Source: Rhynchopus sp. YZ270_cl-10
Taxonomy: Eukaryota
Direction: 5' to 3'
DNA length: 64,000 bases
NCBI GenBank assembly: GCA_964035575.1
Contig: OZ037841.1
Location: 930,001-994,000 of the forward strand
Shown: positions 1,502 to 64,000 of the stretch, in pieces
How positions within the stretch are numbered: the stretch's first letter is position 1
Layout of the letters: each line of letters opens with the position of its first letter
Notes under the pieces: generated by a model
Seen by the model: only the letters and a program-made list of their open reading frames with translations
Told to the model about the DNA's origin: nothing
Databases searched by the model: none
Translations under genes and position numbers: made by a program

Positions 1502-1872
1502 GGTGAGGAAAGAAAAAATGGGGCTAAGGGGTGGTTGGGGAAAGGAAGGAAGCCCCCCTTTTTTTTGTACTTTTTTTGGGAAAAATTGGGAAGGTTGGGG
1601 GGTGGGGGGAGGGGCTGCAGCTGAAAAAGTGAAGTGGAGATTAAAGAAGTAATCATTTCCCACGCAGTTGACTCTAACGTTCTCAGTGTCTCGCTACGGG
1701 GGGGGGAAAACGTGTTTTATAAAAAAAAAAAACTGCTCTTTTTTTTGGTGAAAAGAGGTTTGTATCAGATGTCTAACTTTTTGTTTTTTTTTATTCTGAC
1801 GTCAACCTCGAAATGGATTGTAGGGTTTTCAGCACATCATTTTCGGGTCCACACCTCCCCCCTTTAGACATA

Positions 1873-2062
1873 CCCCGAAGGCGAATTCAGATTCGCCCTA
1901 TATCCGGATTGAATTTAGATCCGATAGGCGAATACGGGATACACACAATAACCCACAGTATTCTCCCTATATTCAAATCTGAATACACCCAAATAGGATC
2001 CGAATATTGTCCAGGAATTTTGGGATCCGAATATGGGGCAAAATACTAATTCGCCTTAGGGG
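1873..2062. mobile_element. Tc1/mariner-like MITE inserted into a family-A hairpin element
   Basis: TIR CCCCGAAGGCGAATT / AATTCGCCTTAGGGG (1 mismatch). TA duplication in a CA-TA-TG context. Confidence 0.8.
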
Positions 2063-2986
2063 TATGCAGCAGGGGTTCCCCGTGGTGTGTTGGCCACGCA
2101 ATAAAAGGTACGCTGCCCATGAGAGGGGCTTGTATTTCAAGTCAACTATACCCAAATAGTTTTTTTATGTGGGCTACTCAGTGCCTGCGTCGTTTGTAAC
2201 TCTCTCCACCCTTTTTTTTAGATTCTTTTCCCCCCTCCCTTGTCAGTCTATACTAGACACCCCGTGCTGTCCGCCAGGATACGATGCCCTTTTGCCTTTA
2301 CGATGATAAGATAACCCTCTGTGGTTGGATAAACGCTCATGTTGTACCTGTGTGCAACCTCCCCCGTGGTAACCCTTATTCCAATGAAGTGCGCCCACCT
2401 CCCCAGTGGGAAAGTGCTCTCTGGGTATTCGAGTAGCCTCGGAGAACCAGTGTCTTTTTGTCCGCAGATGAACGGTGAGGCGTTTGCACTTTCAGCTTCT
2501 TTTTTTGAAATGACTGTGTGCCTGCTTACAGTTTGCCTGTTAGTAACTCCCAAGTGCAGCACTCCGGGGGGGTTCGATAGCCGGAGCGTCAGTGCCTGTG
2601 TCCCAGAGGCGTTTTACACTATCAACTTCACGTTTTTTTTTTTTTTTTTGAGAAACGGTCGAACAAAGTACTGTGCGGCTGATACTCATCTCTAAGCCAG
2701 CCTTTTGTCTGTTTTGTTCCTTGCTTTTCTGTACACAGGCCGTTTGCTTTATTGCCCAACTCGCTGGGACATTTCTTTTCTCTTTCTTTTTTTATTTGGT
2801 ATTGACATGTCGTCACTTTAACGCTGCCAAGGCAGTTCCTGCTCGTCTTTTTTTTATCACTTCGAAATCGGTCGAACGCATGGTTTGGGGTACACACCAA
2901 AGGTACACTGTTCACGAGAGGGCTTTTGTATTTCAAGTCAAATTTTCTATTCACTTCTCCTCTCCGGGTATTCCCACAGAAGCCAC

Positions 2987-3104
2987 GGTGTGATCGGAAC
3001 CCAAATACCCCGTACTTCTCCCGTACCTTCTACTAGGGGGAACCAGAAAATTCCTACACACACCCGAATTCTCTGTACTTTTCCCGTCTGGTTCCGACCA
3101 CACC
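2987..3104. mobile_element. Small MITE-like inverted-repeat element
   Basis: GGTGTGATCGGAACC ... GGTTCCGACCACACC, a 15-bp TIR with 1 mismatch. No clear TSD. Confidence 0.5.
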
Positions 3105-3358
3105 AAGTGAGATTCTATTGCCTTTGGGAGAGTGTTGTGGTGTCAGGGTTGGGGGGGTGCTCTCCTTACGAGACTCCCCTTTCTCTGATCTACCAAGGTG
3201 GCATTGTAGGCGAGTGTCGACCCAACATGCTCCTGCTGATATCTTTTTATTCTAGGAGACAGCACCCTAAGCAAGGTGGCTAAGCAGGCAAGAGGCTGAG
3301 GATACATCCTCACCAAACTTTTCTTTCTTTTCTTTGTTTTTTTTTTAGCCATGTGTTC

Positions 3359-3971: not shown

Positions 3972-4040
3972 TCATCCGGATGGCTGGGCATCGTACGGGA
4001 GGTCAGTCGGAGGTGTGCCTGCATCAACAACTACCATTTT
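3972..4040 (+). repeat. Sense-strand hairpin element, family B (representative copy)
   Basis: Consensus TCATCCGGATGGCTGG(G)CATCGTACG..GGTCAGTCGGAGGTGTGCCTGCATCAACAACTACCATTTT. Other copies at ~16274-16302, 28328-28392, 49394-49456, 51281-51330, 54740-54805, 63027-63066. All on +. Confidence 0.8.
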
Positions 4041-4620
4041 TCTTTTAAATTTTCCCTCACCTCTGTGCGATCTTCTCTCTAGACTCGTTTCTGTGTAAGG
4101 TGGCAACTAAGTAAGACAGACTCTTATGCCCTCTTACAGTTTCCCCCACCCCATCTTTTTGTTACTCGTAAGTTGTGTGTGTGTGCGAGAGAGACACATT
4201 CATCTTACAAGTTTTCTTTTCTTTTCTTTTCTTTTTCTTTTTCCTATGTGTATGACATACCTGCAACCCACAGCAATGTGTCTTTTGTAAACATATTTCC
4301 ACCCACTCATACAGCGAAAACCCACAAAATTGCAGAGCGATACACGAAAACAGCTTTCTTTTATTCACTTTGTCATATCCTGAAGGTCAGCTTCTATTTT
4401 TTTTTTTGGGAAGAACGAGCGGGGCAAACGGTCCATTTTCCCCCCCTTCTTTTTTCGACTGAAGCGTTTTAGCGCGTTTCAACTATTCTTTTTTTAAAAA
4501 TCAGGGATGTATCGGTTTTTGAACGTCCTTGTGTGCTTTCCCTTTGAGTGGAAAGTATATGAAATTAATTAAGCCAACACAACCGACACGATACAACCAG
4601 GGGATGGGTTGGGTGTGTGT

Positions 4621-4662
4621 TTGATAACTAATAGGGGGTAATTCTTGCGCAGAATATGGCCC
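4621..4662 (-). repeat. ~45-bp dispersed repeat GGGCCATATTCTGCGCAAGAATTACCCCCTATTAGTTATCAA, found in both orientations
   Basis: Minus-strand copies at 4621-4662 and ~12890-12922. Plus-strand copies at ~29912-29955 and ~41402-41430. Confidence 0.7.
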
Positions 4663-8507: not shown

Positions 8508-9632
8508 AGAGTTTTCCTAATTTTTTTTTGTCTCAAATCTCACTCTGTTTAGATGAGGTGTATTGCCGTTTCTCGGAAGCATCGTGGCCATTTCAAAAAA
8601 AGGAAATGTTGAGAGATGTAAAAACTTTTTTGTGGGGTTTGTTGGTACAACAGATATAATACAGGGTGGGGAATCAACAATTTTACAAAAAAAGCAAAAC
8701 CAAAATAATAGAGAAAATAAATGGAGCGTAAATGGATGACTGAGTGAACACATGCCCTGTTTTTCTTCAAGGTGACTCAAATCACGCGAGGCTTACCTTC
8801 ATCGTACCAAATTTTTTCCCACCAAAGGTACACTGTCACGAGAGGGCTTTGTATTTCAACTCCTTTTTCTTTTCAGATGTAAATCACGAAATGATGAGGG
8901 ACTGCATGGCCATCCTATTGACCATTTCCACTGGAGTCCACCCTGTACACCGATCACATGCATGAAGGTACACTGTTCACGAGCGGACTGTTGTATTTCA
9001 AGTCATATCTTTTTTTCTTCTCTCTCACTCTAGCAGTTTGTAGTCTCAGGACAAACCGTAAATGAAGCGGAGGACGTTTGGGTGAAAAATGGATATGACC
9101 ACAAACAAGCAAAGAGTGGATATATCATCCTCGGTGAACTCACACAAACCAAATTTTCAAACTAAACAAACAAGTCTCCCCCTTTCCTGTAAATTCTTCG
9201 GCAAACATTGAAACGTAGATCACCCTCCCCTACCTCCACCTGATTAGATACATACCCCAAAAGCAAACCCACGTCTCTGTCTTTGGAGTCATATAAAGAG
9301 CATTTCATTTCCCTCCCCCAATAACTGTTCTTTTCCTTTTTTCCCTGCAAGGTGGGCATGTGTATGTACCTGCAGTGAAGTTACATTATTCCTTCGTGCC
9401 GTGGTCAGGAGCCATAATGTCAACAAAAAATAAAGTGGAGCGCATCCCCGGGGGTGTGCGTTCATGCAACAAAGTTTTTAAATAAAACCGTCTATACTGA
9501 ATGGTGGTGTATTGTGAATGCTTGGTATTTTTTAGTTCCAGGGCTACCCGGGGTACGTGGTCGCCGTGTGCTATGGGATGAAATGCATAAAAAAAAATAC
9601 AAAATAGACATCACCATCGACCTCCCCCACAC

Positions 9633-9786: not shown

Positions 9787-10604
9787 CTTCCATCCTCCCA
9801 CCCCTTGTACTATGGATAGATTAAAGTAAAAAGGCTAATCGCAACCCGTCCCCATTTTGTTTTTTTCTTCTGTAAATCTCCTGTAAATCAATCCCATACG
9901 CATCACTCCGGGGTTCGATAACCCGCGGAGTGTCAGTGCCTGCGTCCCAGAGGCGTTTGCACTATCAACTTCACTTTCTTCTTCTTCGCCCTTTCAAATA
10001 TCCACGCGCACGACAACGCATGCCCTGTGCAACTCCTCACTGGTGAGATTGCTCGTCTCGTTGTGGTATCTCCGAAAATACCTCACTTTGCTTAAGACTT
10101 CGACGAGGGATTCCTGCTCGTCGGCAAAATGTCCGAAGTCGATCATGCGCATGTCCTCACCAGGCAACAAACGCGCACACACTGCACACCTAGATTGCGA
10201 GCGTGCTGCGCCTTTTGGGGTTTCGAGCTCTGATCTGAAGCGGTTCAGAAGCTCACGCCATGTGGACCAGCCTCAGCACGCAGGAACAGCACAGTCGCTC
10301 TGTAGACTTGACGTCCACCGTGTTTGCGTGCGATGTGCTTATCCAGAGCGCTGTGCTTCTGCACCCTCCCTTTCTCAAGATGACACGGTTGCGTTTGAGT
10401 CTTGCATTCGCTGAGCCACACTCACTACACCAAACACCCCCTTTGAGTACTTCTGCTTTGTCCCCTTTGCATGTATGTTCTTACTCAATACCGCTCACTA
10501 TCACCAGGTTTTGCACGCGTCACACCACACACCTTTGCAGATAGTATTTATCTTGGAGCAAGACACAACCCACCCACACCCCAACACCACAACCACACGC
10601 AACG

Positions 10605-11543: not shown

Positions 11544-13310
11544 TGCGGTGTGAGATCATGTGTGTGCATGTTGTCTTGTTCTTCTTACTCTGTTTTCAGC
11601 ATCTTTTTCGTCTTCTACATTTTACAGTTTGCTTTTTGCTTCACCACAGAATACGCTTTTGAGGCGTGTGCAAACGCTGTGCTGCCAGAGCACGCTATTT
11701 GCAGGTGAACCTGAACCTGGATATGACTATTGCCATTGTTATTATTGCTTTTTGTTGTTGTTTGCATATCCTGCTGTTTTTTTTTTTTTACTCTTTTCTC
11801 TTCATTCAGTTTTATTTTCATTTTACCTTTGCACGTCTCTTGGAGAAGGGGACAACTGCACAAGGAATGTTTCGACCTCTTCCTGTGCAGGCAAATCATA
11901 CCTTCAGTTTCGCTTCAGCTTTCGAGTAGCTGTTTTTGCAAACTGATTCCACGTTTTCCCATGAACCGGCCAGTCACGAGGCCTTCGGGAAGTGACTGGA
12001 CGCATGAAAAGTACAAAACAAAGCACCCTTTCCTTTTCCTCAGTTCCCCATTCGCTGTTCTCTGTCACCGCAAGGAGAGGATGAAACAACAGGATCGGTA
12101 CTATCTGACGGCCTTGTGTCGGTTGAATACGAACACCTAACTCGCAAGCTTTCACAACTGCTGATTCACGTTGCTTTGCCCCGAGACGACGTTACGAGGT
12201 CAGTGATGATAAACATTCACACACAAATCACTCCAATCGTATTGGGCAGTCTTTTTGGCTGTCTCTGCCGATGCTTCAACATGCACCACCATCTGAGTTC
12301 CGAAACATGCAACCAGGCAACAACGCATTGCGAGAAGCAAATCACCGGTCATCCACATTTCTGTGATGCACAGCTCCACGCTGGATGTTTATCGCAAAGC
12401 AACGCACACAGGCCTGCCTGCTGCGTCACACATATTCTACGCCGCTCACTATACCCTTTACTTTGGGTTACAACCTTCGCGAGTCTTAACGACTACAGTT
12501 ATATTACCACATTCTTGTTGATCTGGGGTAGCATGCTGGTCTGGGGGAGTTGTTTTGGATAGGGGAAGGGAAGACGTTGGGGTGTTCATATCTATCCTGA
12601 CTGGGAATGCATTTGCCTGGTTCCTTGGTTACTTTTGTGGTGTTCTTCTGAGGCTATCCTCACAAGACATTTCCTCATGATGTGCACAGCGGAGGAGTTC
12701 GGAATGATGCGATGTTGGGAACGAGGCTTGAACGGTAGGTAGGTAGGGGGCAGGGTGGGAAGGGTTGTGTGCACAGGAGGGGAGGTTGGTGCTGCGAGGG
12801 GAGACCACGGTGTGAAGTGGTCAAGTGACGTTGATGCATGCTATGCAATGCGCAGTGCGTGCAGTCCGTCGTGTGGGGTGGTGATGCCTAGTGAGGGAAA
12901 ATTCTTGCGCAGAATATGGCCCGTAACGTGGAGTGTGGGGGGGGTGGGGAGAGAGGTAGGGGGGGTTGATGCTATGGGGAGGACCACGGTGTGAAGTATT
13001 TCCACATCTTTCCGTTTATCGTGGGGAGCGTACTGTGCATGCTTGTTGTTGCGTTGATGTGGGAAACATGCAATGGGTTTTGCCGACTGATTATGAACTC
13101 CCTCCGTTATCTCACGGTCCGGACCACTCACATCCCACCCTTTGCACCAAGCTAGTATATTTCAACTACTAGTTTACAGCAGTTGCTCCGCGATAAACGA
13201 ATGTGATCAAGGTGACTAAGCACACAAGACTTAGATTCATCTTATAAACTTTTCTTCCAGAGGTTGGGTATATCTTGGAGTTAATTTTTCTTTTCAAAAA
13301 AAGAAACACA

Positions 13311-14090: not shown

Positions 14091-14140
14091 AAGTATAGTG
14101 GAGCACACTCTAGGGTGGCTACACTAATACAACCAAGTTT
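14091..14140 (+). repeat. Sense-strand hairpin element, family E (representative copy)
   Basis: Consensus GTATAGTG..CATCCTCGGGTGTCTACACTAATACAAC..TTTT. Other copies at ~9112-9158, 22168-22217, 44234-44286, 50384-50412, 52207-52252, 59550-59600. All on +. Confidence 0.75.
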
Positions 14141-14420
14141 TCAAAAAAAAAATAACTCGAAAATATTTCAAAAAAAAAGAGAGAAAAAAAATGATTGTTA
14201 GAAAAGCGGAGCTGCTTGTTGCACCCAAAGGTGAGAGCACAGCTACGCTATTTAATAACGTTCAACAGAGAAAAAAAACGGAAAGTGGAGATTGCACAAC
14301 TGTGTCAACACAACCGAGGCAACTGCACTACTCCAAACAATTTATCAAACAAAAAAACAAAAAGAACAAAACAAAAAATGTATCGTAACGAAGGCAGTTC
14401 TGTTCAAGGCCTGCACCACT

Positions 14421-14590: not shown

Positions 14591-17052
14591 ACCTCCCACC
14601 GTCCCTTCTTCCCTCCCCTCCCTCCCCTCCCCTCCCCTTTTAGTGGCCTTCCAAGCTTTTTTTCTCATAGTCGATGCTGTTGTGTGTAACCCTTTAATCC
14701 CCCCCCTCCCAAGAATTCGATTTTTTCAAGTTGTTGTTGCTTTTTTAATATAAATCTACCTTTTTTCTCTCTATTTGGTTAGCACAGAACCAGCTGGGTA
14801 GTATTCCGCACTGAGCTACCCACATAACCTTTTTTCAAAAAAAACAAAAAAAAAAAACGCTGTTTTTTTGTGCAAAACAGCGAGAGAGAACATCCATCAA
14901 AATCAGGGGAAATATTTATCATCTTATCAGAGGGGTGCGTATGTGGGTTGTGAGGTGGGGAGAAAGAAATAAGGTGAGTATTCGTGACGGACATCAGGAG
15001 ATGAAAAAAAATGGGGTGAAAAAAAGAGGCAGTTAAAGTGTCGAATATACATAGTCGTCAAGACAAAAAAAAGCAGTTTTTTTTGAGGGGAAAAAAAAAT
15101 ATGAGAAAAAGGGGGTGTTTTGGTGTATGTTGTGGGCCTATCGGATTTGGTGTGACTATTTTTTTATGTGCTCCCCTCATGAAGCTTTCCCCCCGATGTC
15201 ATATTTGCCTTCTTTCCCTCCCCATTTTTCCCAAGAAATACAAAGAAAGTACTTTGCTATTTGGAGTATGACATCCCCCCCCCTTTTAGTGGAAAAAAAA
15301 ATGAGTATAAATCACTCTTGCGTGTCCCCCTTCCTAAAACTGGGAACAGACGTGGTCAGGGATACATGCCAGTTTTTAATATAACCAAACGTGGTGAACG
15401 AGGTATTAGAATCGACGGAAGGTGTGTTGTCTGCAAATTTGTCTTTTTTCCAGTATTTAGTGCTCCTTGACGACCCAATATTGCGTACTTCTTGCGCACT
15501 TAGTGTGTAGTTGGCGGGGGTTTTTTTGGATTTCTGGGGTACCAGTATTTGTAGTTTTTTTTTTTACCACTCGCACAAACTGAACGAAAAAAAAACGCAA
15601 CAATTTTTGCAGAGCAATCCACGAAAAAAAGGTGTTCGCAAAAGGGTTCTTAGGTTCATCTCATAATTTCCCTTCGTTGCTTCTGCGTCAGCTTTGGCTA
15701 GGCGTTTTGCACTCTCAACTTCACTTTCTTGTTTCACAAAGCAACACTCCGCAGGGTTCGATAACCCGCGGAGTGTCAGTGCCTGCGTCCGCCGAGGCGT
15801 TTGCACTCTCATTTTATTTTATGCTGTATGTGCGCAAGCGACACATTCACAAACGCGTTCTCTCCATTATTTTATTTTATTTTTGCTTTCCCCCCCACTG
15901 TGTGTTCCACGCATCACAGCCCCCTTCCCTTCCCTCTATATGTGTGCACCAAAGTGCAGTAAAAAGTAACGTTTTTTTTCTTGAAAATGTAGTATAATTA
16001 CTTCCCCAGGTGTGCACAAACAAGAGCACAAAAGCAAAAATTACAAAAGAAAAAAAAAAATACTTCACAACAAACAGTGGCATGCACACCGCGAGACGCC
16101 CATTCATCATTGGACCCCATTGTAGTTCAAGGTGACTAAGCACTGAGGCTTAGAATCATCTTACACAACCTTTTTCTCTGTCTTTTATTTATTTATTTTG
16201 TTTTGAATATTTTTTTTCTGCGTTTTCGCGCATGTTTTGTTTTTGTCGAATTATATTCGCACTTCCCTTGTGTCATCCGGATGGCTGGCACCGTACGGGT
16301 TCCTTCCCCACCACCCCCCCCTACGCACATCAAATAGTGCACAGTGATCATATTAGCCCCAGGTAACATGCTAAATAACTTGCTATTTGCATGTTACTTT
16401 GAAAATGCATGTTTTACAAAGACAAATTAAAAAAGGTCAGGTTTTTTGGGCAAGTTTAAAGGAGAAGAAGGAGAAAAAAAAGACGTTAACTGAAAGAGCC
16501 GACACAACTTCGTGAGGGAGGTGGGCTGGGACAACAAAAAAAAAAGCACATAAAGCAACAACAGAAGCAAGCTTATCTCGGAGAAAATAAATTTTTTTTT
16601 TCTCTCTCCCACGAAAAATCGTTCCCTCCACACATTTTTTCCCCCCAACTTTTTTTACCCCATTCCACCCTCATTCCCCCCTCTTTTATGCAGGGTAGTG
16701 TACGTTATGGCATTGACCCTTTTGCTTCACCCCTCTTTGTCAAATCAGACAACCTTTCTAGATGAGTGTGCATGAGTGCATCCCCGAAAGTATCACATTT
16801 TTCATCTATTAAGATTTTTCTTCTTCTTTTAGTACTCTCTGGGTGGACTCTTTAAAAGGCCCTCCCTCCCCCCATCCCCTCCCACCATCCATGACTTGGC
16901 GCCTTCAAAGGTCCAAAAGAAAAACTCCACTTTTTCCCCTCACTTTTATTTGGAACAGAGTGTTCTCAAACAGAGGGTAAAAAGTTGGTCAATTTTTTTC
17001 CGACTCAGATTCTTTTTTTTGTGGTGGTAACTGTGTGTTACATTTTTCATAA

Positions 17053-17147
17053 CAATGAAGTGCTCTCTAGGGGTTCGATAACCCGTGGAGAACCATGTGC
17101 CCTGCGTCACGCTGATGAACGGTGAGGCGTTTTGCACGTTCAACTTC
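17053..17147 (+). repeat. Sense-strand hairpin element, family C (representative copy)
   Basis: Consensus CAATGAAGTGCTCTCTGGGGTTCGATAACCCGCGGAG..GTGCCTGCGTCCGCCGATGAACGGTGAGGCGTTTGCACTTTCAACTTC + T-tract. Other copies at ~2382-2500, 2551-2630, 9903-9972, 15683-15722, 15744-15812, 21572-21596, 21981-22075, 43410-43452, 43530-43560, 45651-45708, 50214-50275, 51401-51448, 53893-53935, 59281-59360, 63394-63415. All on +. Confidence 0.85.
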
Positions 17148-17893
17148 TCTTTTTAGATCAAAAAAAGGTGATAAAAGGTGATGATCCTAAGCACGGCTTA
17201 GGATCATCTTATAAACCTTACTTTTATTTTTTTGTTCAGATGGTGCTCTTAGGGTCGTCTGAAGTATTGTGGTTTTTATTATTTGCCTTTATTGGATGTA
17301 TCTGGTAGAGAACATCCTGTTTACTTCCTCTTCTTTGACTGGAAAGGAGATGAAGGTAATGTATTGGGGTGAAGAAGAACTGCAGGCTGCCATCCTGTGC
17401 TGGTAGCGGCTGTGTGTCAGTGATATTTCAGGTGTGGGTTATCTCGAGCATTTGAAATATAACCACATAGACCATGGGTCTGTGTACATCATTCCGTGCT
17501 GTGAAAAGCAATGAAGTGTTATGTGCAGGGGGGAGGGACGCATTTAGCTTTACAAAAAAAAATCTGTTTTTTGTCCTTTCTTCCAACGATCATGGATGTC
17601 CAAAGTACTTGAAGTATATCAAGTACTTGATCCCCCAAAAAATCCAATACTTGATACTTCAAGTACTTGACACCCTATTTTTTTTTCTAGTACTTTTTTA
17701 CTTGTTCTCCCTCTGTCAAGTACTTTTTTCACAAAAAAAACGTCAAGTACTTGATCAAGTACAAAAAAAAAGTGGGTACTTGATCAAGTACTTGACGTTT
17801 TTTTGCGAAAACAAGTACTTGACAGACTCTGCCAGAGGGTAAAAAAGTAAAAAAGTACGAGAAAAAAAAATACACCACGCTGGATGATAGGGG

Positions 17894-50892: not shown

Positions 50893-52012
50893 TATGTTTT
50901 TCTTTAAAATACAAGATAGGGGAAAGGGGGTTTCCACCCAAAAGGGGGCGGGTCGTGGATGTGTGTGATTTGTGTGTTTGAAAGCAAGGTGTGTGGGTAA
51001 TCGATACGGAAGATTTTCCAGTGGGTGTGAGGATGGGGAAAAATGGGGGTTTTTTTGTGGAAAAAGTGGATCACGTCCTCAGGGGGGTGGTGTACTCGGG
51101 GGGGGGGTTTTAAAAAATTTCTCCCCAAAAAAAAATGCACTGATTTCTATTTGCACACCTTCCTTTTCATCCCTCACCAACACCCCCCTCGTCCCCCTTT
51201 TTTTCTTTTGCTTTTATGTACAGTCGTCCAAAGTTTGGCAGATTTTGGAGATTTTTTTTTCGCGAAATTCGGCGCCTTTTAGGGCTGGTATCGTATGTGG
51301 GTCAGTCGGAGGGGCCTGCACCAACCATTCTTTTTATTTCAAGATGACTAAGCATGAGAGGATTAGGATCATCTTATAAAATTTTCTTTTTATTTTACGC
51401 GAAGTGCCTGAGTCCGCCGATGTATGGCGAGGCGTTTGCACTATCAACTCCTCTTTGAACGTCAATTGTATTCCTTTGGGCGACTGTATTTTCTTTACCC
51501 CCTCCTCCCCCATCACCTTCTCCCCCTACCTGCTAACCGCTACCTTGTGTGCATCTGCATGGAAAGCACAACTGTTGTGTTCTCTTGTACGGTGCCCTCT
51601 CCCCAGATAATAATGCCAAAGAGCACAACAACCGCGTCCCCACCCCTTTTAGATGTGTGCACAGTGCTGCACATTCTTTTCTTTCTGTTTGTTCAAGGTG
51701 ACGTGCACGAGAGGTTTAGGGTCATCTTACAACAACTTGTCTTTTCTTTTCCCCCCCTCTGTCTTATCCGCGGCATATCTCAACCGAATCTGGTGGTTTC
51801 CGCGATGAAGAAAAAGAGAGAGAGGGGGAGGGAAAGGGGGAGAGAGAGAATTTTTTTTTTTTTTTTTTTTTTTTTCAAAACCTTGTTCGTCTCTTGTTAG
51901 TTGGTAGGTAAAGGCTGTGAAGGGTTGTTTTTTTTTTGAGTTGAAAACACACGGCAGTTTTTTTTTTGGAAAAAATAAAAGCAAAAATAAAATTTTAAAC
52001 TTTGTGATGGAA

Positions 52013-52099
52013 CCACCTGATTTTGCCTGAAATTTTGATGGGGTTTAGTGGTATTTAAACATCACCAAATTCCACCAAATTTTCAGGCAAAATCAGATG
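52013..52099. mobile_element. MITE, same family as 44815-44912
   Basis: CCACCTGATTTTGCCTGAAATTTT ... AAATTTTCAGGCAAAATCAGATG. Confidence 0.75.
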
Positions 52100-55000
52100 A
52101 TGGGAGTTTCTCCAATAGCTCTATACCATTCTCCAACGTGGGGAATTCTTGTGAATATCAAAATGAAAGTGAACGCATAAAAAAACATAGAAATAAATGT
52201 GCTTTTTGTACAGTGCACCTATCCTCGGGGTGTACTGAATACAACCAAATTTGCAAAGGAATTCAATAAAATTCGAGGGAAAAAATACAAAAGAAAACCA
52301 AAAAAACCACTTTTCAAAAATTCCAAAATTCTCAAGCACCAATGGAGGACATAGTGCCGTCCACAATGTATTATTTTGTTTTGCCATGTAAACCATGTAA
52401 ACCATGAATTGAATTGTAGGACTGCATGGTTTGGGGTCTCATCCACACGGTGCACTCAACACGCACCAAAGGTACACTGTTCACGAGAGGGATTTTTGTA
52501 TTAGCAGTCAATTTTCTCTTCGGACAGGTGATTGTCGATTCTACAATAACAAAAAAAAACAACAGAACGGTTGGCTCTCTGTTACACCCGTATGATGGTG
52601 TGGTATTCTCCTGCATATAATATGGCGGTATATGGCTTGGAACGGTGAAACAACCACAAATAAAAAACCACATGGCAAACTATTTACTTCACCGTCGTGT
52701 GCACACAACAGCCATCGCACTATATTTCACTCATTTTTCGTTCGTAGCACATATAATATGTAAACGCACGAAATGGATTGTAGTACTGCATGGCTGGGTC
52801 CATCGGGGTGAGAGGAGGTTCACCCAACGGCGCATCAGCCACATGCCAAAGGTACACTGTTATCGAGGGCTTTTGTATTTTCAAGTCACCTTTTTTTACA
52901 ACCCTTCAACGGTATTCCTCCACTTCATGAAACCCACCTAAAGATATCCTCCTCTCTCAGTTTTATTTTTTCATTTTTTAGCCGTTTTTCTTTTTATTAG
53001 AAAAGTGTTTTTCTTTTTTTTGTGAGGGTGTTACGTGCGAAGGTAGTTTTGTGTGTCATCCCTTGTCCATGTCAACAGCGATCGCTGAGTGGGGTCCACC
53101 TCTCGTGCTCTGATGATGTCTGCATTCATATACTCTGATGTTTTTATCTTCAGAAACAAAATCAAAATCCGCAGACATCTTTGCCTCCTTACCTACCGTA
53201 AAGGTAGAAGAAAAAATAAGAAACAAATCAGGGGCACAAAGCAAGAAAAAAAGCAAAAACAAAAAAAAAAACAAAAACAACTTCATAAAAACCCCATTCA
53301 AACCCACGTATTTTTTGCATCACACGTGTGAATTCTTTTAGCCAATAAACAAAAAACAAAAAGTCATCTTCAAAATAAATGGATGTTGTGTGGGTGAGGG
53401 GGAGATGGGTGGTGTATTTTTTTTTTTCTTCAAAAGAAACGATGTGTTTTGTGTGTGCCTTCAGAAGATTCTGACATTTTTTTTTTCTGGAGAAATTACA
53501 GAAAAAAAGACATTTTTTTAAAAGTAGTTGAAGAGAGTTACTTGACCCGTTCGTTGTCGTGTCATCTTGTATTTTTTTTGTGTAAGTCCCCCCCACGTAA
53601 GCCTTTCTTTGAAAAGTTGAAAGGTGTGTATGCACGCGAGGCACATTCATCCTTCAGCTTTTATTCTTTGTTTTAGGTGACTAAGCGAGGTGTAGAGAGC
53701 ATCTTACCCAAACCATTCTTTCTGTACCTCTTCGTTACCCCCCCCCCCCCCCCTCACCCCACCCCCCTCCCCCCTCTGTGCCTGCACTACGACACTTGCC
53801 ATGGCAAGACAAGCAGTTCTGCATAACGTTCGTTTTGTGCTTTGTTATTGCGCTTGTAATTTAACATGTGCTTGTCATGACAACTGTTGTCGTATGCGTC
53901 CGCCGATGAACGGTGAGGCATTTGCACTTCCAAATTATTATTGTCTGCAAAACAGCTCTAAAGGTTGCATTGTTCTGGTGTTTTCAAAAAAAATAAAATA
54001 AAAACAAAGAGAATGGACATAATAGATGTAGGACCACATGGTTGGGGTCCACCCAATGGTACACCGGTCATTGTACCTAAGGTACACTGTTCACGAGAGG
54101 GCTTTTTTTGTATTTCACAAATATTATTGTCGCACATTTTAGTCTATAGGGGCGTTCGGTCGTCTTCGTTTGGAGGGTACAGCAAAAAAAAAAAAGGAGG
54201 TTTTTCTAGTAGGGGGTTGGGTGGCGTGGGGGGCAGGCGTTTCTCCCCTATGTATGGGGGGTTTGGGATTGGCGATGGGGTCGACAGAATGCGGGGAAAT
54301 TTATTTTTTGCGCGCTTTTTGAGCGGGGGAGGAAGAATGATGGTAAACTCAAAAAAGGTTCAGTAAAAAAAGAATACAAAAAAACAAAAATGGAAAGTGA
54401 AGATAGCACAAAACTGCGCTATTCCAACTTTTTTACCTTTTTTTTTTTCAAAAAAAATTCAATTTTTTTTTAAAAACAAGAGCTAGTGAGGCACATCTGC
54501 AGAGATGTGAAACGCTGATACGAAAAGTTTTTCAAAAATAACAGTAAAAAAAAAGGCAGGAAAACAAGAAATTCATTCTGGGGTAAAAAGTTCGCAAAAG
54601 AAGAAAAAAAAAATACAAAAAGTAAAAAAAAAGCAAAACAAAACTTGCAACAAAAAAAATATCGGACTTCCACCTCTCTGTTTCTCTCTTGCTCCCCCTC
54701 CTCCTCTTCTATTCCCAACCCAACCCACAATTCATTATTCCCCGGGGCTGGTATCGTACGATACGAAGTCAGTCGGGGTGTACATGTATCAATAACTACC
54801 ATTTTTCTCTCTTTGGCAGTGGCATGTTAAAACTTTCAACCGAACTTTCTGATTTATAATACAAGCAAAGGAGGACCGTCCGAAGCGAAAGCGTGTACGT
54901 CTCTGGATGCAGTGATTATTTGTTAAAAGCTGTGAAGAAGGCGAAGTTTAGCGAGTTTGTGGTAGAGGACCGTCCGAAGCGAAAGCGTGACGGATCTCTG

Positions 55001-55307: not shown

Positions 55308-58300
55308 ATGGAGACCCCCGACCCACCCGTGGATGATGACACCAGCCGTGCTGACACACCTCCTGTTGAGGAGGATGCGAGCGGTGAGGAATACCAGCTG
55401 GAGGATGAGGAGTACGACCCAAGCGAACAGGAGGTTGCGGAGTACTGCGAATGGCTTGGGATGGACCTGACACAGGAACGATCCCTTACGTGGATCGCAC
55501 GAGAGGCCCTGAAGGCTCCGCTACCAGAATACTGGAAAATCTGCTACACAGATGAACGAGAGGTTTACTACTTCAACATGCGAACCGGAGAGAGCATATG
55601 GGACCACCCAATGGATGCCTTCTACAAGGCGCTGTTCAAACAAGAACGTGCCAAGCTAGAAAGCAAGCTTCTTAGAATGCGAATATTCGCAGGGTCCATG
55701 CCAATCGTGCCCTTACAATCTCTCTTCAGCGATCTTTCCGGGGAAGAGGGTGGGCCAGAGATCCCCGAGAGGCTATGTGATCCTATAGACTTTATGTTAT
55801 TAGTTGACCCGGTGGTGCTGCCTACCTCGGGGAGGACCGTGAGCAAGCATACCATCGTGAACAATAAGTGGAGGGATCCGTTTACCAGAGAGTACGTCGA
55901 AAACCGCCGTCTTATAAGCAACGTCGACAAACGGAATGAGGTTGGCTCCTGGCTCGCCAAGGCTGTCAAAGAATATTTTGTTGCAACAGCGTTTCCCTCA
56001 GAATGGAAGCAGTGGGGACGTTCCCAGGGCACCCCCTATATGGTGGGTGATGGACACAAAGAGATGCCAAGCGAGGTGCCGAACGTTGCGGCGCTGTGGC
56101 CTGCTATTGAGCGGGTCCTGCCGTACATCCTGGACAAGGAGGATGAGGTGTGCCTGGATGCGCAGAGGTGGGTGTTGTATTTTCTTGTGACGGGGTACGC
56201 GCTGCCAGGGAAGGTGCGTGGGAGGGGTGGGTTGCGGCATGTGGCCGATGTGAGGGTCTTGCGGACAGCCGCGCAGGTGACGGCGGCAAACGAATTGCAT
56301 GAGATTGTAGCAGCGTTGCCCGATGCGGGTGTGCTGCTCAAGCCGCTTCTCACCATGTCGACGTCGGCTAGTCTAGAGGCGTTGTGTCTCGTGCTCAGCC
56401 ACCATCCCCCCCTGCGTGCGCATCCGTGCTTCTTCGGCTTTGATGCGCCGGTGTTGCATGTGCTCCAGATGGCGGACGCTGACCTAACAACAATGTGTTC
56501 CAGCCTAACAGCGCACAGCTTCCCACCAAAAACGACAAATACCGACTATCTGGTGAAGTTGCAGTGGTGTTATCTGTTGTTTGTATGTTTTTTTTTTGTT
56601 TGTTCTTTTGGTTGTTTTTTTTGTTTTTGTTTGGCCTAGCCCCTCCGCTACGTTTTCAGATTTTTTTTTTGAGTTCTGTTGCGGGGGGTTTTTTTCCAGT
56701 GTCTTATCCAGGAATCCAGATTTCAAGATTGGGGGTCCAAAATTTTTTTGCGTGCCTTGATGGTCGCAGTTGGTGATGTCCTCCATACGAAGACGTTCAT
56801 CGAAAACCCGTCTGCAAGAGGGAGGGCCGCCTCCTTGCCACCCGTGAATGCACACGACGAAACGACAGTGAAGTTCCCCCCTTTCGCTGTTGCTAAGGTT
56901 ACTGCACGCGTAGCCTGTGTCTTCTTTTCTGCGAAGATAACGCCTGCTTCGACTTGAATAATTCCTCAGCGGTAAGCATGGGCGCATGAAACGTACGACA
57001 GAGAAACTGTGGCGGGGGGGCGGGCCTTCGGGCAGACTGGAGCCATTGTGTCTGTTTGGAGTTGGCGGTGGAGGGCGCGGTGGCGGCGTACGTGCGAGGG
57101 CGTGCGCGAGCGAGTTGTTGTTGGGATCCGGCAGTGTGGACGGGTCTATCGGACGCAATGTTCGCAGAAGCACACCCGCAGTGGTATCTGATGAGGTATC
57201 GATGTAGCTGCCGCTGCTGAAGCTGCTGTAGTCATGGTTGTTGTAGAAGTGGAGCCTCCGAACAGGTGCACCTTCCCCAGTAGCGCGACGAGGGTTTCCT
57301 TACCGCAAGGGCCGACTCAAGCGACGCTGGAGAGTTGGCGCTTTCCACAAACCTAGCGGCCTCCAGCTGGAGGGCGCTGTGCCAGCCGTCCGACATGTTG
57401 GTGTTGTTCTATAAAGAATGTTGTGTTACAAGGGGGGTTTAAAAATCTCAACGCAGAATATACATTTCACTCTTTTCACACAAAAGAAGGGTAAACGAGG
57501 AAATAGAATTGGAAGGTGCCTGCAAATTGTTTTTCAGTATTTTGTTTTACCTCAGGAATTACCCAAAAAAAAATGCTTTACATGACACCCATACCACACA
57601 CAGGATTCTCCAGGGGAAATGCACGTGTTATCGCGCATCCCGTGGGACTTGTCCTTCGCTGCCATTGCAACAGCTTATCACAGTCTGCCGCAGTCGTCTC
57701 AGCTGTCTTATTTAGTATGCAACACGTTGCGCTTTTGGTGGGTTGTTTGCCTTTATTTTTTAGATGTAAACCTCCTTGGATGGACTGCATGGTTGGGGTT
57801 CATTGTACCGTCATGAGAGGGCTTTTGCAATTAATATTTCAATTGAAATTGTGAATTCAATGTACCACCCAACAGACAATAAAGATGCTGAGATGTCTGC
57901 CAGGCTGGCCCGCAAACATCAAGTCGTCAGACCACGAAGCCATACAGTATGCCCACACACTTTTTCGATAATGGATTGTAAGGGAAATCATGGGGGTCTA
58001 TCCACCCCACGGTGTTCTGGTTCACGCCAATAGAGGTGTACTGATACACCCTTTTTATTATACCAAGCATTGTCAAGAGGAAATAATCGACGGAAGGTGC
58101 GTTGCCTGCAAATTATTTTTTCATCCAATATCTGTTTCACCCACAACTCATACAGCGAAACACACAACAAATTTGAGCGATAAACGAAAAACTTTTGTTT
58201 TTCTGTTTACTTTGTCATATCCTGAAGTCAGATTCTATTTTGTATTTTGTTTCACATCACATGACATCAAAGTACCACTTCCCCCCTCCCTTACAGATGG

Positions 58301-59191: not shown

Positions 59192-61012
59192 GGGAAGGGG
59201 GTGATGCTGTGCGATAACGATTGGTGATGCATGTGAGAGGCTCAGGGGAATCTCAAACTTTTTGTTTTGTTTTGTTCAGTCCAATGAAGTGGTGCGTGTC
59301 TCCCCCCAACGCTTCGATAACCTAAAGCGGAATGGAAGTGGTCTGTGCACTTTCCAACTTTTTTTTTCAGAAGGTTTTTTTTAGTTCCCTCTTTTGACGA
59401 GCGGGCTGTATTTCATGTCAAACTTTTTTTTCTCTCTCTCGATTTCATACGAGAATACTTTTTTGTTATTTGATTTCAGATATTCATTTGGTGGGGATAT
59501 ATAAAACCAAAGTCGGGGTCGACAAAAAGTAGCTACCACGAAGAAAAGGTTTAGTGTAACCCATCCTCGGGTTTGTCTACACGAATACAACACCATTTTC
59601 AAGAAAAGAAAAAGTATGAGAGAGACAGACCAGAGTTGTCCTTAATGAGCCTTAATTCTCTACCACGCTCATTATGGATAAGATGCGGTTGGCTTGTCTG
59701 TCACAGTATCTCATTTTCATTGGTCCTTTTTTTTTTCCACCCCCGGTACACCATGTCATGTACCAAGGTATATTGTATACAAACATACGAAGCGGTACGC
59801 GTACGGTTTGTTAGGGGATGCGTCCAATGAAAATCACGTCAGTAGAAAAGTTCGAGAATGTAGGTTTTATTATTTCTGTCACAGAGCGGGCTGGGTAAAT
59901 TTACCCCCTTTCCACCGCTTCCACCCAAAAAAAAAAGACTCTCAGTGATGAGGTGTGTGTGCTTTGTCTGTGCGTGTATTTTTCTAGCCCCCTTCATTTT
60001 TTTTAAAAATGTGTGTGGTTGTGTTTTTTGAAAAAAAACAGTTGTTTTTTTCGGTAGTTTCGAAGAGTGGAATATTGCTCAGATTGTGTGGTTGTGTGTA
60101 TTTCGAAAACAGTTCTATTGGCAGCCTACGAAAGAGAGGCACATTGCCTGGGGGATACGAGAGGCTTAGGTTCATCTCATAACCTCCCCCCCTTTTTTTT
60201 GTGCGCACCGTGAGGCGCGTATTCCGTCTCTCTTTTTTGTTTGTTTGTTTTTTTTTATCCGTTCTTTCCTCTGAAGATGGCTGAAACCACAAAAGGCTTT
60301 GGGTCATCTTATTAGTTCTCTCTCTTCCCCACTATTCCCATTTACGTTACCCCATCCACATCACATATTGACATGAAATGAATGGACCTCTTCAGCGCGG
60401 TGTTTTTTTGGTACACTGCCACGAGGGCTTTGTATTTCAAAACATCTTTTTTTTGGGGGGGAAATCCCAGGGTTCAAACCGGATCTTATTCAAAGAAATC
60501 TGATTTTTTATTTCCTGGGGGAAAGGTTGTGTGTCCTTTTAATGTGTAACCTCAAACCCACTCACCAAAAAGCAACGGTACCCGCACCTCAATTTCTGAG
60601 TTCAAAAAAGGCACACAGTCAAGATCGCAAGATCCCGCTAGCCCAGACAGAATCCGCCAAAGGGGAATAGAATTTTTTTTTTCTTTTCTTAAATTGCTTC
60701 TCACCCACCTTCCTCTTTGGAACGTAACTTGCAAACACACACAAAAAAAGGCACACCCCCCTCCCTACGTCTCACCTTCCCTCAAACAACCCCTCCATCC
60801 CACACACTCCACCAGCACCCCCCTCCCCTCCCCTCCCCTCCCCCAAAGTACACACCCAAGGCAAACCTCTCTGGAGGAGGGAGTCGAGAAGCGGTTTCAG
60901 GGGGCATACCCCCTCCCATCCCCTCCCCTCCCCTCCCCATCCTCCTAACAAATTTAACCCCCTTTTATTTTGGTCATTTCTTTTGTTTTTGACAACTTTG
61001 CATGCTAAGAAG

Positions 61013-62950
61013 ATGGCGGGGACTTCCAGAGTCGCGCTGGGTATCATTCTCTTTGTGATGCTATGCTTTACTGCGACCACCATATATGACCCTCAAACCG
61101 CCCCTGAGCGGTTATTGAAGCTGCCCGACTCTGTTTCAACCGAGCCTTCAGAGTCAGGGTCTTCTTCCGGGTCCGAATCTTCTTCAGGATCGGAGATAGG
61201 GGTAACTCATGCAGCTTCCGCTCTTGAAGAGCGGAACGCCTCCGCAGATGCACGGAACTATCCGTCCCTTGCACAACTTCGTTTACTTAAGGCGGTTCCC
61301 CCACAGAATATTATTACCGAAGAGCACATCAAAAACAGTAAGCACACCTTCGAGAAACCGCGCGAAGTGGAAAAGGACACCGTTGACATGGAAAGCCATT
61401 TGAATATTGTAGTAAAAGGCGAGGATTGGGCGTTGTTCTGTTATGGGCGGAACACCACTTTGCCGCTCCCTTTTGGGAAGACTGGGGTGTCGCAACCGAG
61501 ATGTTTTGTACATAAGTCACACTGTGCGAAGGATTTTAAGATATTTCAGTATCCATTACTCCGAAAACATTATTACCGTGCACGAAAGAAGAAGACAAAC
61601 AGTGGTCGGTTCTTTAATGAAATTCATGATGAAGTACGAACGAAGCTGAAGACATTTCTCACAGCGACCCCGCATGATGCCTGCGCCTTTATGCTAGGCA
61701 TTGACACGATGATGTTTGGAAACTCCCCCTCAATTTTTTCCGGCGATTTTGCTGAAGGCGATTCACTCTTAGAATGGCAGGCACCGCATGCCTCCCCTCC
61801 TTTTCCCTTCATCCCAAAAGGCGCTGTCACGAACACGACTCTTCATATCAAGGCTCTCCCAGACCCTAATGGATTTGCTTCGTTCTCCTTCTCCGGTGAG
61901 TCATCAACACTGCCGTTGGAGGAAACACTGAGGAACACCACTATACGTCCGATCTGGGGGCTGAACCATATGTCGTTAGGGTTTTGCGATTGGGGGATCG
62001 ATGAAGAAAGGGCATATACCAACCGCATGATGCTTCCAGTACGCTCCTCTGTAGTAAATACAACGTATCAGCGTTGGATTGATATGGTCATTCCGCTCCC
62101 AAAAGTGATCAAAAAGAGTACTAGGCTGACGGTGCTCGCATCCGCAAAACCGTCATTAATGTTCTTTTCGGGGTCCGTATATGATTTCAAATCAAGTCGT
62201 TACCAACTTCGTCAGCTTCGAACATTAGGAACACCTCAGGAAATTAGAATTTGGCTTTATTGTTATGATAAGACCAGAAAAAAACCGCTTACTCCAGCGC
62301 AAATGAGGAAACGTAAGGTAGGGTTGGGGAGATGGCAGAAATTTAAAATGAAGTGCGCGCCCGAAACGGACCGGTCCGATGCGGCAGGGTTTTTTCCTAG
62401 CTTCAAGAAAAAGCCTCCAGCGAAGAGCAGACGAGGCAACCTATTTATGCCACCCGAAGAGTTCTCTGGGGATACGGCAGACTTCTATTCAATCGAAATG
62501 GAGTCAAGCACCTTTTGCCTGATCCTTCGAGGCTGGGGTATGCACTCCTATCGGCTGACCGAAGCGTTGTATCTCGGTTGCATTCCGGTAATATTTTCTC
62601 CAGGAGCATTGAGCCATACGAGAGGTGACGATACATACGTGCCATTAATCCCTGTGTCTCAGATCCTTCCGTTTCATGATAGAATAGATTGGGCACAGAT
62701 TGCGGTGTTTGTGGATGAAGATGAGTTGTATACGGCGGAGGGGAAGGAGGGGATTGTTGCGCGGCTGCGTGCGCTGAAGGCAGACAAGGTGAAGGTGGAG
62801 GCCATGCAGTTGCAGGGGATGGTCGCACACGACACGCTTCTCGGGGCAACAAACCTCAAAGACAGCATGAAGGTCCTAGCGAAGACGATCTTTGGCGAGA
62901 TGGCGTACAAAGCGCGCATCTACGAGAGCATGATGCGGAGGCACAAATGA
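61013..62950 (+). CDS. Exostosin-family (GT47) glycosyltransferase, type II membrane protein, ~645 aa
   Basis: N-terminal signal anchor VALGIILFVMLCFTAT. GT47 motifs SSTFCLILRGWGMHSYRLTEALYLGCIPVIF and LPFHDRIDW. Confidence 0.9.
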   Translation: MAGTSRVALGIILFVMLCFTATTIYDPQTAPERLLKLPDSVSTEPSESGSSSGSESSSGSEIGVTHAASALEERNASADARNYPSLAQLRLLKAVPPQNIITEEHIKNSKHTFEKPREVEKDTVDMESHLNIVVKGEDWALFCYGRNTTLPLPFGKTGVSQPRCFVHKSHCAKDFKIFQYPLLRKHYYRARKKKTNSGRFFNEIHDEVRTKLKTFLTATPHDACAFMLGIDTMMFGNSPSIFSGDFAEGDSLLEWQAPHASPPFPFIPKGAVTNTTLHIKALPDPNGFASFSFSGESSTLPLEETLRNTTIRPIWGLNHMSLGFCDWGIDEERAYTNRMMLPVRSSVVNTTYQRWIDMVIPLPKVIKKSTRLTVLASAKPSLMFFSGSVYDFKSSRYQLRQLRTLGTPQEIRIWLYCYDKTRKKPLTPAQMRKRKVGLGRWQKFKMKCAPETDRSDAAGFFPSFKKKPPAKSRRGNLFMPPEEFSGDTADFYSIEMESSTFCLILRGWGMHSYRLTEALYLGCIPVIFSPGALSHTRGDDTYVPLIPVSQILPFHDRIDWAQIAVFVDEDELYTAEGKEGIVARLRALKADKVKVEAMQLQGMVAHDTLLGATNLKDSMKVLAKTIFGEMAYKARIYESMMRRHK

Positions 62951-63331
62951 TATCCCCCACAAACCCGGAAAGGGGTTTTTTTTTAATTGTACATTTTTTT
63001 AAATTATTATAACGATTTGTGTGCGTTCATCCGGGCTGCGTGCCGGCATCAACAACTACCCATTTTATGATAACGATTGTGTTCAAGGTGGCTAAAGAGG
63101 TTTAGGTTCATCTTAATTTTTTGTTTTCGTCTTTTTTTGCGGAAAGTGCAACGGCAATGGTGTGGTCCCTAACACAAAACGAAATAAAGTTGCAGGGTGA
63201 GTACGGTGATGGGGTGGAGAGGATGACTATCGGGGGGGATGGGAAAAATTTTTTTCTTTCAAACCCCACCCCCCCCTATTAGGTTTCATAAAAGCGGACT
63301 AAGGTTTTGTCTTTCACGTCACATTTTTCTT

Positions 63332-63377
63332 GAAGGTGACTAAGTACGAGAGGCTTAGGGTCATCTTCTAAACTTTT
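63332..63377 (+). repeat. Sense-strand single-hairpin element, family D/F (representative copy)
   Basis: Consensus AAGGTGA-CTAAG-CACGAGAGG-CTTAG-GGTCATCTT-A(T/C)AAAC-TTTT. The F variant has a TGTG/CACA inner stem. Other copies at ~3274-3320, 4097-4142, 4175-4215, 8768-8815, 13208-13255, 16127-16175, 17175-17222, 21744-21782, 30217-30252, 31958-32005, 43184-43222, 43575-43620, 44416-44455, 51341-51385, 51693-51740, 53621-53665, 53675-53715, 60128-60185, 60273-60312, 63083-63120. All on +. Confidence 0.85.
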
Positions 63378-64000
63378 TCTTTTTATTTGTACGTGAAGTG
63401 CCTGAGTTCGCAACTTTTCATTATTTTTTTTTTAAAAGAACCACCGTGTTGGACACATGGTGGTCTCGCCGATCACACAAATAAAATTTAAGATGAATTT
63501 AATAAAAGCGCTGTGTTAAAGTGGCGCCACCTCCCTATTTCTTGTTTTGTCTCTTTCCCTTCCTGTCCCTGTCCCACATCATTCATACACCAATAAGGTC
63601 AGTCCCTTCGGCGGCCCCATAATTTTTTGTTCATATTTTCTTTGCTCCTTCCCACCCCTTAAGTGTCGTTGCTCCGTGGTTCACATATTTGCCGACAGTA
63701 TTCCAATATTTGGGGTACAAATAAAGTCCCCAAAAAAAAATCTCCAAAATCCGCGTTGTTTAGACGCCAATATATTTGGAGTATTGTATTTGCAAAATAT
63801 CGTTCAGGAGATGCTTTCTCTGCATGTGAACAACAACAGCACTGAGTTTTTTTTGGCGTAGCGTGCTATATAGTCACTCAGCTTCGCTACTGGTTTCTAA
63901 TTTCGGGGCTCACGGTCAACTAAAAGGGAGAGGAAGAAAATGGAATTGCCTTTTGGTAATCCAACAACCTGAGAGGTAAATGACGGGGGAGGGATGGAAC

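Follow-up and report, generated by a model that had tools for sequence, protein, structure and literature searches.

Why should every copy of a large set of short repeats lie on the strand from which the surrounding genes are read? The question is raised by a 64,000-nt window, the whole stretch of DNA analysed here (positions 930,001 to 994,000 of contig OZ037841.1, assembly GCA_964035575.1, Rhynchopus sp. YZ270_cl-10), in which dispersed, non-coding elements of 40-130 nt occupy introns and the DNA between genes. An earlier note, made from the letters alone, had described about 70 such copies as covarying hairpin elements, all on the strand of nine genes, and had proposed an undescribed structured-RNA system using one shared machinery. 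Judged by sequence likeness the host is a diplonemid; the SET-domain protein encoded in the window has four relatives besides itself at 49-57% identity, of which two are named Rhynchopus humris and Diplonema ambulator and a third is labelled Hpha. The strand lock proved to be complete within the window; the claim of covariation was weakened.

Orientation and placement of the repeats

The repeats were first grouped by self-BLAST of the window. Eleven module profiles, hand-seeded from + strand copies and iterated, were then searched against both strands (nhmmer --max, E<=0.05); the family letters are our own and may differ from those of the earlier note. All 92 rows returned are on the + strand (A3 14, A5 12, B 15, C3 13, C5 8, D 7, E1 3, E2 2, G 4, H 8 and T 6, where A3 and A5 are the 3' and 5' modules of family A). 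They merge into 73 loci of eight families, 73/73 on + (A 16, B 15, C 13, H 8, D 7, T 6, E 5 and G 4, with one locus counted twice). By coin toss this orientation would have a probability of ~2e-22; tandem neighbours are not independent, which leaves the conclusion unchanged. The reversed window, used as a control, gave 0 profile matches, and relaxing the cut-off to E<=5 yielded 15 short minus-strand matches, the best of which (E 0.32) overlaps a + copy.

Seventeen loci are intronic (17/17 sense), 55 are extragenic and the remaining one adjoins a stop codon. No locus falls inside the coding sequence of the nine genes, every one of which is on +, and no copy lies inside a 3.9-kb terminal inverted repeat (TIR) element; the window divides into 27,120 bp of coding and 36,880 bp of non-coding DNA. 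Profile matches occur in 10 of the 15 introns, and degenerate copies recognised by eye in two more bring the count to 12/15. Median within-family identity is 0.67-0.82 in the larger families. Copies cluster, with 13 of 72 neighbour gaps at <=30 nt against a random mean of 4.4 and a maximum of 11 in 300 simulations. The short copies are a mix of 3'-only, 5'-only and internally deleted forms. In the 20 nt downstream of non-T loci T dominates (T 605, C 283, A 254, G 198), and an A-run end is found only in family T.

Other repeats in the same DNA show no such lock. A 45-bp repeat has two copies on each strand, both minus-strand copies lying in introns; a second short control family has three + and two - copies, and TIR ends occur both ways. 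All self-BLAST links among the element families are same-strand, unlike those of the TIR families, and the either-orientation TIR plan of miniature inverted-repeat transposable elements was not found. In outline, then, the earlier note described the window well: 67 of the 73 loci are of the kind it reported, and its nine co-oriented genes, its 15 introns with copies in about 12, the absence of copies from coding exons and from the large TIR element, and the two-way orientation of the TIR and 45-bp repeats were all borne out.

The remaining six loci form family T, an additional A-tailed family. Its plan is a hairpin, AAC and a short T-run followed by an A-run, with mostly A-rich flanks. The six copies, all +, usually stand one per intergenic region, and those at 14093 and 59549 have an 8-nt flanking repeat.

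Hairpin plan, copy number and RNA

Families A, B, C and H share a 3' module consisting of a 5-6 bp closing stem with a span of ~25 nt, GAGG, an A-rich linker and a U tract, and we consider a common hairpin module in these four families credible. The closing stem with GAGG had been claimed more widely; D, E and G match the plan loosely. B, H, A3 and C3 align around GAGG without structural help (MAFFT), and when a covariance model trained on 13 B copies was applied without filters to both strands, it returned those 13 B copies first and five H copies next (E 0.01-1), all on +. Closing stems of B, A3 and C3 were compared with the central U-A pair as anchor, a choice that makes only this one pair circular and that skipped two anchor-less copies. 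The neighbouring pairs change by family with pairing kept, being G-C, G-U, U-A, G-C and A-U/G-U in B, G-U, G-U, U-A, A-U and C-G in A3, and A-U, G-C, U-A, G-C and U-G/C-G in C3. Stems of B and A3 span 21-29 nt, those of C3 25-38 nt. G-U cells number 43 against 15 A-C cells, an excess that represents few family-level events counted in many copies and to which transcription-linked mutation bias could contribute. A generic scan for the hairpin grammar was weakly specific (10 plus, 3 minus).

In B, 79.9% of cells pair, compared with 31-46% when the two sides are slid. Covariation in B is not above chance, as 421 of 500 shuffles reach the observed score; with H added in a structure-fitted alignment, 16/500 shuffles reach the score and 144/500 match the number of doubly changed pairs. 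Against dinucleotide shuffles the mean folding z is -2.5 for B (n=13), -3.1 for C5 (7), -2.5 for H (6) and -2.4 for T (6), whereas it is -1.1 for C3 (9), -0.3 for A3 (11), +0.2 for A5 (7) and +0.3 for D (5), so the description of the elements as stable hairpins is borne out for the first group and not for A3, A5 or D. For A3, B, C3, H and T the minus strand folds less well than the + strand; for C5, A5 and D the two strands differ little. RNAalifold on MAFFT alignments, whose gaps limit this result, gave no consensus pairs for A, D and T and only four for C. The C 5' hairpin (17058-17095, 21987-22024, 2412-2450) resembles a tRNA T-arm with an acceptor-like strand and ACCA; compared with a genuine tRNA end it lacks one or two bases, its likeness to a T-loop or B-box was judged by eye, and ARAGORN and Rfam give it no support.

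Of five sequencing runs from two studies that contain the region, four were examined. X1, X3 and X4 have the character of DNA, their long contigs crossing introns, and X5 was taken as spliced RNA from its joints (one run, contigs only, 11.7 kb). Summed depth relative to single-copy depth is ~7,400, 1,500 and 2,100 for B (position 51362) in X1, X3 and X4, 3,600, 2,700 and 3,300 for A3 (54078) and 2,400, 1,400 and 2,200 for the C 5' hairpin (45667). These ratios are not copy numbers and hold to an order of magnitude only; they suggest roughly thousands of genome copies per major family. In one long A copy the 3' module (49567) is 2.9-3.3x deeper than the 5' end (49483) in the three DNA-like runs, measured for A only. 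This agrees with the claim that 3' ends are kept and 5' parts lost, although some copies in the window are 3'-less or internally deleted. To judge from consensuses of loose ends, copies in other parts of the genome are flanked by T-rich DNA on either side.

At 99% likeness, X5 contains the GT..AG joints 48029>48289, 49746>50100 and 50155>50517, the last of which excises an intron of 361 nt together with the C element that it contains. Of the eight joints listed, not one removes an element alone (0/8); the other five link distant repeat copies or have short sides. In this run elements leave the RNA only within whole GT-AG introns and are kept unspliced in a 3' untranslated region (UTR)-like region. 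Past the stop near 50559, contigs 50815-51312, 51283-51803, 52021-52492, 52473-53239 and 53288-53736 traverse D, B, C3, B, T, A, A, H and B unspliced at a depth of 36-103, compared with 98 in the exon; in all, RNA contigs run unspliced through ten copies. Cover extends to 54900, and part of the next gene has none. The region after gene 7 has the appearance of a 3' UTR longer than 4 kb that contains 12 elements. As RNA runs through the T copy at 52208, family T is not an obligatory poly(A) site. A further contig, 59847-60682 (depth 39), spans three elements downstream of U-box exons with a depth of 0-4, and may represent either an extended 5' UTR belonging to the GT47 gene or an independent transcript. 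Much of the tested DNA that had been called intergenic is thus transcribed and UTR-like.

Candidate origins of the repeats

The statement that the repeats belong to no known family agrees with our Rfam and tRNA searches. Rfam at the gathering threshold has 0 matches in the window. At E<=10 it has 57, nearly all on palindromic TIR/MITE DNA, and no meaningful match on any copy in whole-window and small-region scans; one weak long non-coding RNA match overlaps an A copy. The small-region search also gave one minus-strand H/ACA match at chance level (E 7.8), and no conserved ACA/AGA box or pseudouridylation pocket was seen by eye. A ribozyme like that of hepatitis delta virus (HDV) in long A was dropped (strict descriptor 0 in the window, relaxed descriptor 0 in ten A, C and D copies), the hammerhead, twister and C/D core descriptors had no family-wide match, and a C/D box pattern scan gave six + matches, of which one place overlaps a copy. 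A Pfam scan of 18 non-genic open reading frames (ORFs) found no reverse transcriptase or transposase. Exact A3, B and C3 patterns had 0 matches in metagenome, viral and prokaryote collections, which says nothing on their distribution in eukaryotes; a metagenome search with the SET alignment gave two short loci at 30-31%, which were set aside. We found no published description of these repeats; novelty is provisional, the supplement of PMC10161547 (repeats, UTRs), Dfam and Repbase not having been compared.

By eye, the 5' module of long A (e.g. 32540-32634) is collinear with 5S rRNA from about position 45 to the 3' end. For comparison, 100 loci were collected by a 5S motif, Rfam confirmed 14 of the 20 checked, and 14 of 34 distinct eukaryotic copies were used. 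One of ten A copies reached z 3.2, the others ranging from -1.7 to 1.7, and the consensus gave z 1.9 (p 0.04). A 5S origin of this module is a lead only, drawn from sequence likeness. Many prokaryotic assemblies in the searched collection carry eukaryote-type 5S rRNA arrays, a likely contamination.

We give an even chance to the reading that the repeats are non-autonomous retroposons resembling short interspersed nuclear elements (SINEs), copied from host polycistronic RNA by a reverse transcriptase encoded elsewhere. Counted in its favour are the excess of the A 3' module, T-rich flanks, high copy number, sense-only orientation and control repeats that lie both ways. Polycistronic co-oriented gene clusters, reverse transcriptases of the long interspersed type and an RNA interference (RNAi) pathway are reported in Diplonema papillatum (PMC10161547). 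As a copy has no evident promoter or ORF, it would be expressed by host read-through only. Recognition of the 3' hairpin by an enzyme common to the families, followed by priming on the U tract where the target is T-rich, would keep 3' ends and lose 5' parts. The lock itself may arise at insertion, tied to the transcribed strand, which within this model seems slightly the better than even choice; with a probability somewhat short of even, antisense copies would instead be purged because they pair with nearby sense copies and trigger RNAi. That intronic copies are all sense while the 45-bp repeat is antisense in two introns leans slightly to a lock at insertion. A taste for T-rich targets cannot give 73:0, because T-runs and A-runs of >=5 nt are about equally frequent in the element-free part of the non-coding DNA (189 vs 183), and T-tract targeting was rejected as the cause. 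Since one window is one gene cluster, transcription and replication direction are confounded. We infer, rather than observe, the mobility of the elements, the partner enzyme and any function, and a regulatory role, by analogy with Leishmania SIDERs, would be secondary.

Several results weigh against a retroposon origin. No tRNA- or Rfam-type RNA polymerase III head was seen (ARAGORN 0 tRNA, no Rfam head), the A 5' module resembles 5S at a borderline level, with no match by nhmmer, and A and D fold no better than their shuffles. The search for target-site duplications (TSDs) that the earlier note had proposed found no significant duplication among 48 copies: the mean longest flanking repeat is 4.3 nt against 4.1 for mismatched flanks (permutation p=0.12), and repeats of at least 8 nt flank 5/48 copies compared with 3% in the null, one of them (1/48) being 12 nt long; the TSD vestiges of the SIDER/ingi clade measure 11-19 bp. 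Ordinary retroposition inserts both ways, so the lock needs an extra step. Some short copies have both ends but no middle, which also suits DNA-level elements or simple decay.

Were the repeats host cis-acting RNA elements, a code of protein-binding hairpins and U tracts for pre-mRNA handling, stability or intron length, they would have spread by duplication or conversion and sense copies would be kept since only these work. Their strict sense in introns and UTR-like RNA, a stem geometry constant across families of different sequence, the copies in 12/15 introns, most of them 230-385 nt long, and the regulation of mRNA by SIDERs in 3' UTRs (PMC2323293) all speak for this. We still judge it unlikely, because the distance to the 3' splice site varies from 32 to 276 nt, several kb of non-coding DNA and three introns have no copies, many copies are broken or unpaired with B covariation at shuffle level, and positive selection alone leaves the absence of neutral antisense copies unexplained. 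Single-stranded DNA mobile elements (non-autonomous Helitron/Helentron-like or IS200/605-like), in which an HUH nuclease would read the subterminal hairpin and direct insertion to a strand that is exposed, either the lagging or the non-template one, would account for that hairpin, for T-rich flanks on both sides without significant TSDs and for internally deleted copies that retain both ends; the G-U/G-T bias marks strand specificity rather than RNA versus DNA, and Helitron-like ORFs are reported in D. papillatum (PMC10161547). This origin appears distinctly improbable, as no shared terminal motif was evident when termini were inspected by eye and the threefold excess of the A 3' module fits reverse transcription. 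Helitrons and Helentrons are not known to be orientation-locked.

Dispersed small RNA genes processed from host introns or polycistronic transcripts, whether snoRNA-like guides or retrocopies, would suit a sense-only intronic location and single-hairpin size, but the lack of Rfam matches and box motifs together with thousands of copies makes them a very poor candidate. Poorer still, and scarcely to be expected, are introner-like mobile spliceosomal introns nested in introns and UTRs, running from AAG|GT to an AG after the U tract. A and B do start with AAG-GT(A/G) and end in a pyrimidine tract, and reverse splicing would give sense-only copies. No RNA joint removes an element alone, however, and contigs stay unspliced through ten copies, so that this reading is largely refuted for 43200-54900, where element-sized splicing is absent from X5 contigs. 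All 15 introns are GT-AG with the donor GTATG in 13, and the acceptor regions of 12 introns are C/A-rich (C 125, T 59, A 54, G 2), in agreement with PMC12621601; real acceptors being C/A-rich, the U tails do not mimic the 3' splice sites of this organism. The elements as splice signals were likewise unsupported by RNA joints and acceptors. Distinct from all of these is a tentative possibility, doubtful but conceivable: a new class of promoterless mobile RNA modules, in which several families that look unrelated would use a single GAGG-hairpin/U-tract address. Their insertion would be tied mechanically to the way in which polycistronic transcription runs, for instance through entry into host pre-mRNA and return to the locus as cDNA, or through priming at transcription R-loops. 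On this tentative possibility the host would carry tens of thousands of copies as a structural code in introns and UTRs.

The single-strand or RNA-level interpretation made earlier keeps the all-sense orientation, the G-U excess and the better folding of the + strand in most families; one structured-RNA machinery stays conjectural in view of weak covariation, two large families that are not stably folded and no ribozyme pattern. Known repeats share parts of this profile. SIRE elements of Trypanosoma cruzi are sense-biased in mRNA 3' ends, U-tailed plant SINEs and the SINE partners of L2 and RTE combine varied 5' modules with a 3' hairpin and tail that they have in common and show the 3' module in excess, introners are sense-only short repeats with hairpins in genes, and bacterial REP/BIME and BOX mosaics are modular palindromic repeats in untranslated parts of polycistronic transcripts. 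The last likeness is analogy, the present elements being eukaryotic and U-tailed; unlike introners, they are not spliced as units in the tested region and make no introns in coding exons. The SIDER parallel already drawn is fair as analogy: SIDER1 and SIDER2 are short, high-copy, degenerate repeats of a polycistronic euglenozoan genome, mostly sense and in 3' UTRs, and T-rich DNA lies upstream of them (PMC2323293, PMC2689281), as is typical of SIDER2/ingi insertions (PMC2323293). SIDERs are, however, 450-790 bp long with a 79-bp signature and an A-rich 3' end, and they are sense at ~4:1 and mostly antisense in spacer regions (PMC2689281), whereas here elements are U-tailed except T, 73/73 sense, and fill introns. 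The sense bias within a gene cluster is present, but the A-rich 3' end and, in our descriptor scan, the HDV-like 5' head of SIDER/ingi are absent (the 77-79 bp signature sequence itself was not aligned), and membership in SIDER therefore fails. SIRE, derived from VIPER, is likewise a short non-coding interspersed euglenozoan repeat, and VIPER-type elements make no TSD; it is one family of ~430 bp matching VIPER repeats, in contrast to eight families with a common hairpin plan (PMC12278014, PMC6681497). With SINEs that share a 3' stem-loop with L2 or RTE partners the elements have T-rich targets in common, a hallmark of RTE-driven SINEs (PMC6007223), and they are high-copy, non-coding and in 3' excess, with the caveat that depth ratios are rough and the excess is known for A only; they differ in having no proven polymerase III head and no significant TSD, and ordinary SINEs are not strand-locked. 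Most likely, by analogy, the elements work like SIDERs or SIRE but stand outside the SIDER family.

Genes, further repeats and wider setting

The coordinates of the genes, control repeats and elements are collected in the table. The introns of the U-box gene were inferred from the open reading frame and are one of many frame-keeping splice solutions, picked for GTATG donors. Intron lengths are narrow, the two of 15 outside 230-385 nt measuring 161 and 1021. Long element-free non-coding stretches at 32700-34330, 11544-13100 and 56740-57420 have ORF-like composition and no Pfam hit, and are possibly decayed insertions. Ends related to the 3.9-kb TIR element also occur at about 264-443. Further two-copy repeats, all +, are 41088-41124/46198-46231, 3360-3465/56638-56735 and 17019-17051/21948-21981, the last pair being a small hairpin just upstream of long C copies.

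Table. Genes, control repeats and nhmmer-profiled elements of the window
Feature	Position	Strand	Remarks
Three left-hand genes	602-1501, 5250-7343, 10605-11543	+	no Pfam family
SET-domain gene	13311-14003	+	
FN3-repeat protein gene	22861-31243	+	2,427 aa
BIR-PH gene	34490-43066	+	2,589 aa; BIR and PH domains, repeated modules
Gene 7	45515-50559	+	seven exons, six GT-AG introns; ORF refinement, three joints in RNA
WW/U-box protein gene		+	three introns
GT47 protein gene		+	
TIR element (control), 3.9 kb	17583-21484		12-nt subterminal arrays; no Pfam hit in three internal ORFs scanned
45-bp repeat (control)	4619-4662, 12881-12922, 29913-29953, 41402-41427	2 +, 2 -	
A, 5' module only	1798..1854	+	
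A, A3 hairpin module	2104..2147	+	
Two C	2412..2630	+	2412-2500, 2558-2630
A, partial 5' module and A3	2875..2943	+	
B	3272..3325	+	
D, H, E1, E2 cluster	3972..4401	+	D 3972-4042, H 4179-4221, E1 4309-4362, E2 4366-4401
B-like copy in that cluster	4096-4146	+	used to train model, outside the 73
B, A3, long A in tandem	8767..9007	+	B 8767-8817, A3 8823-8864, A 8876-9007
T	9431..9486	+	
C	9904..9973	+	
B	13207..13256	+	55 nt upstream of SET-domain gene start
T	14093..14149	+	90 nt past SET gene stop
G	15399..15449	+	
B fragment, C3, C	15637..15815	+	B 15637-15666, C3 15700-15723, C 15744-15815
B	16127..16174	+	
Long C, B	17058..17223	+	C 17058-17149, B 17175-17223
C3, H, long C, T	21573..22225	+	C3 21573-21597, H 21746-21788, C 21987-22076, T 22170-22225
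D, A3	28328..28555	+	D 28328-28393, A3 28525-28555; FN3 gene intron 28237-28621
A 5' module, internally deleted	29799..29856	+	intron 29645-29976
Long A	31243..31361	+	begins at FN3 gene stop codon
D 3' part fused to B	31920..32007	+	
Long A	32561..32674	+	
Weak H (E 0.023)	39673..39701	+	intron 39506-39786
H, C3, C3, H	43186..43628	+	H 43186-43227, C3 43411-43452, C3 43543-43562, H 43587-43628; downstream of BIR-PH gene; overlapped by RNA contig 43426-44185
T, H	44237..44463	+	T 44237-44293, H 44427-44463
C, internally deleted	45657..45690	+	intron 45542-45856
G, weak E1	46247..46372	+	intron 46125-46416
H, D, long A in tandem	49361..49589	+	intron 49310-49624; RNA contig ends at 49309
C	50208..50276	+	intron 50156-50516; GT..AG RNA joint 50155>50517
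D-B-C3 tandem, B	51282..51739	+	tandem 51282-51452, B 51693-51739; 3'-UTR-like region of gene 7
T, long A, long A	52208..52888	+	T 52208-52257, A 52395-52512, A 52758-52888; RNA contigs 52021-52492, 52473-53239
H, B, C3, A	53626..54118	+	H 53626-53667, B 53675-53719, C3 53895-53936, A 54021-54118; RNA contig 53288-53736
D	54742..54807	+	
G, A, A5, G, E1, E2	57496..58243	+	G 57496-57537, A 57763-57842, A5 57970-58021, G 58075-58124, E1 58150-58205, E2 58209-58243; U-box gene introns
A3 fragment, T	59397..59607	+	A3 59397-59421, T 59549-59607
B, B, A3	60156..60447	+	B 60156-60185, B 60272-60312, A3 60410-60447
D, B, B	63035..63378	+	D 63035-63066, B 63083-63116, B 63331-63378

The repeats of diplonemids, which are abundant in the sea, are uncurated. 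In the polycistronic kinetoplastids, decayed retroposons in UTRs became regulators of mRNA fate, and here, in a sister lineage of marine protists, sense-locked hairpin repeats reach a density of about two per kb of non-coding DNA. This lineage offers either an independent case of the passage from retroposon to regulator or a mobile element that inserts by transcription direction, and with it the question of why euglenozoan retroposons co-orient with gene clusters becomes directly testable.

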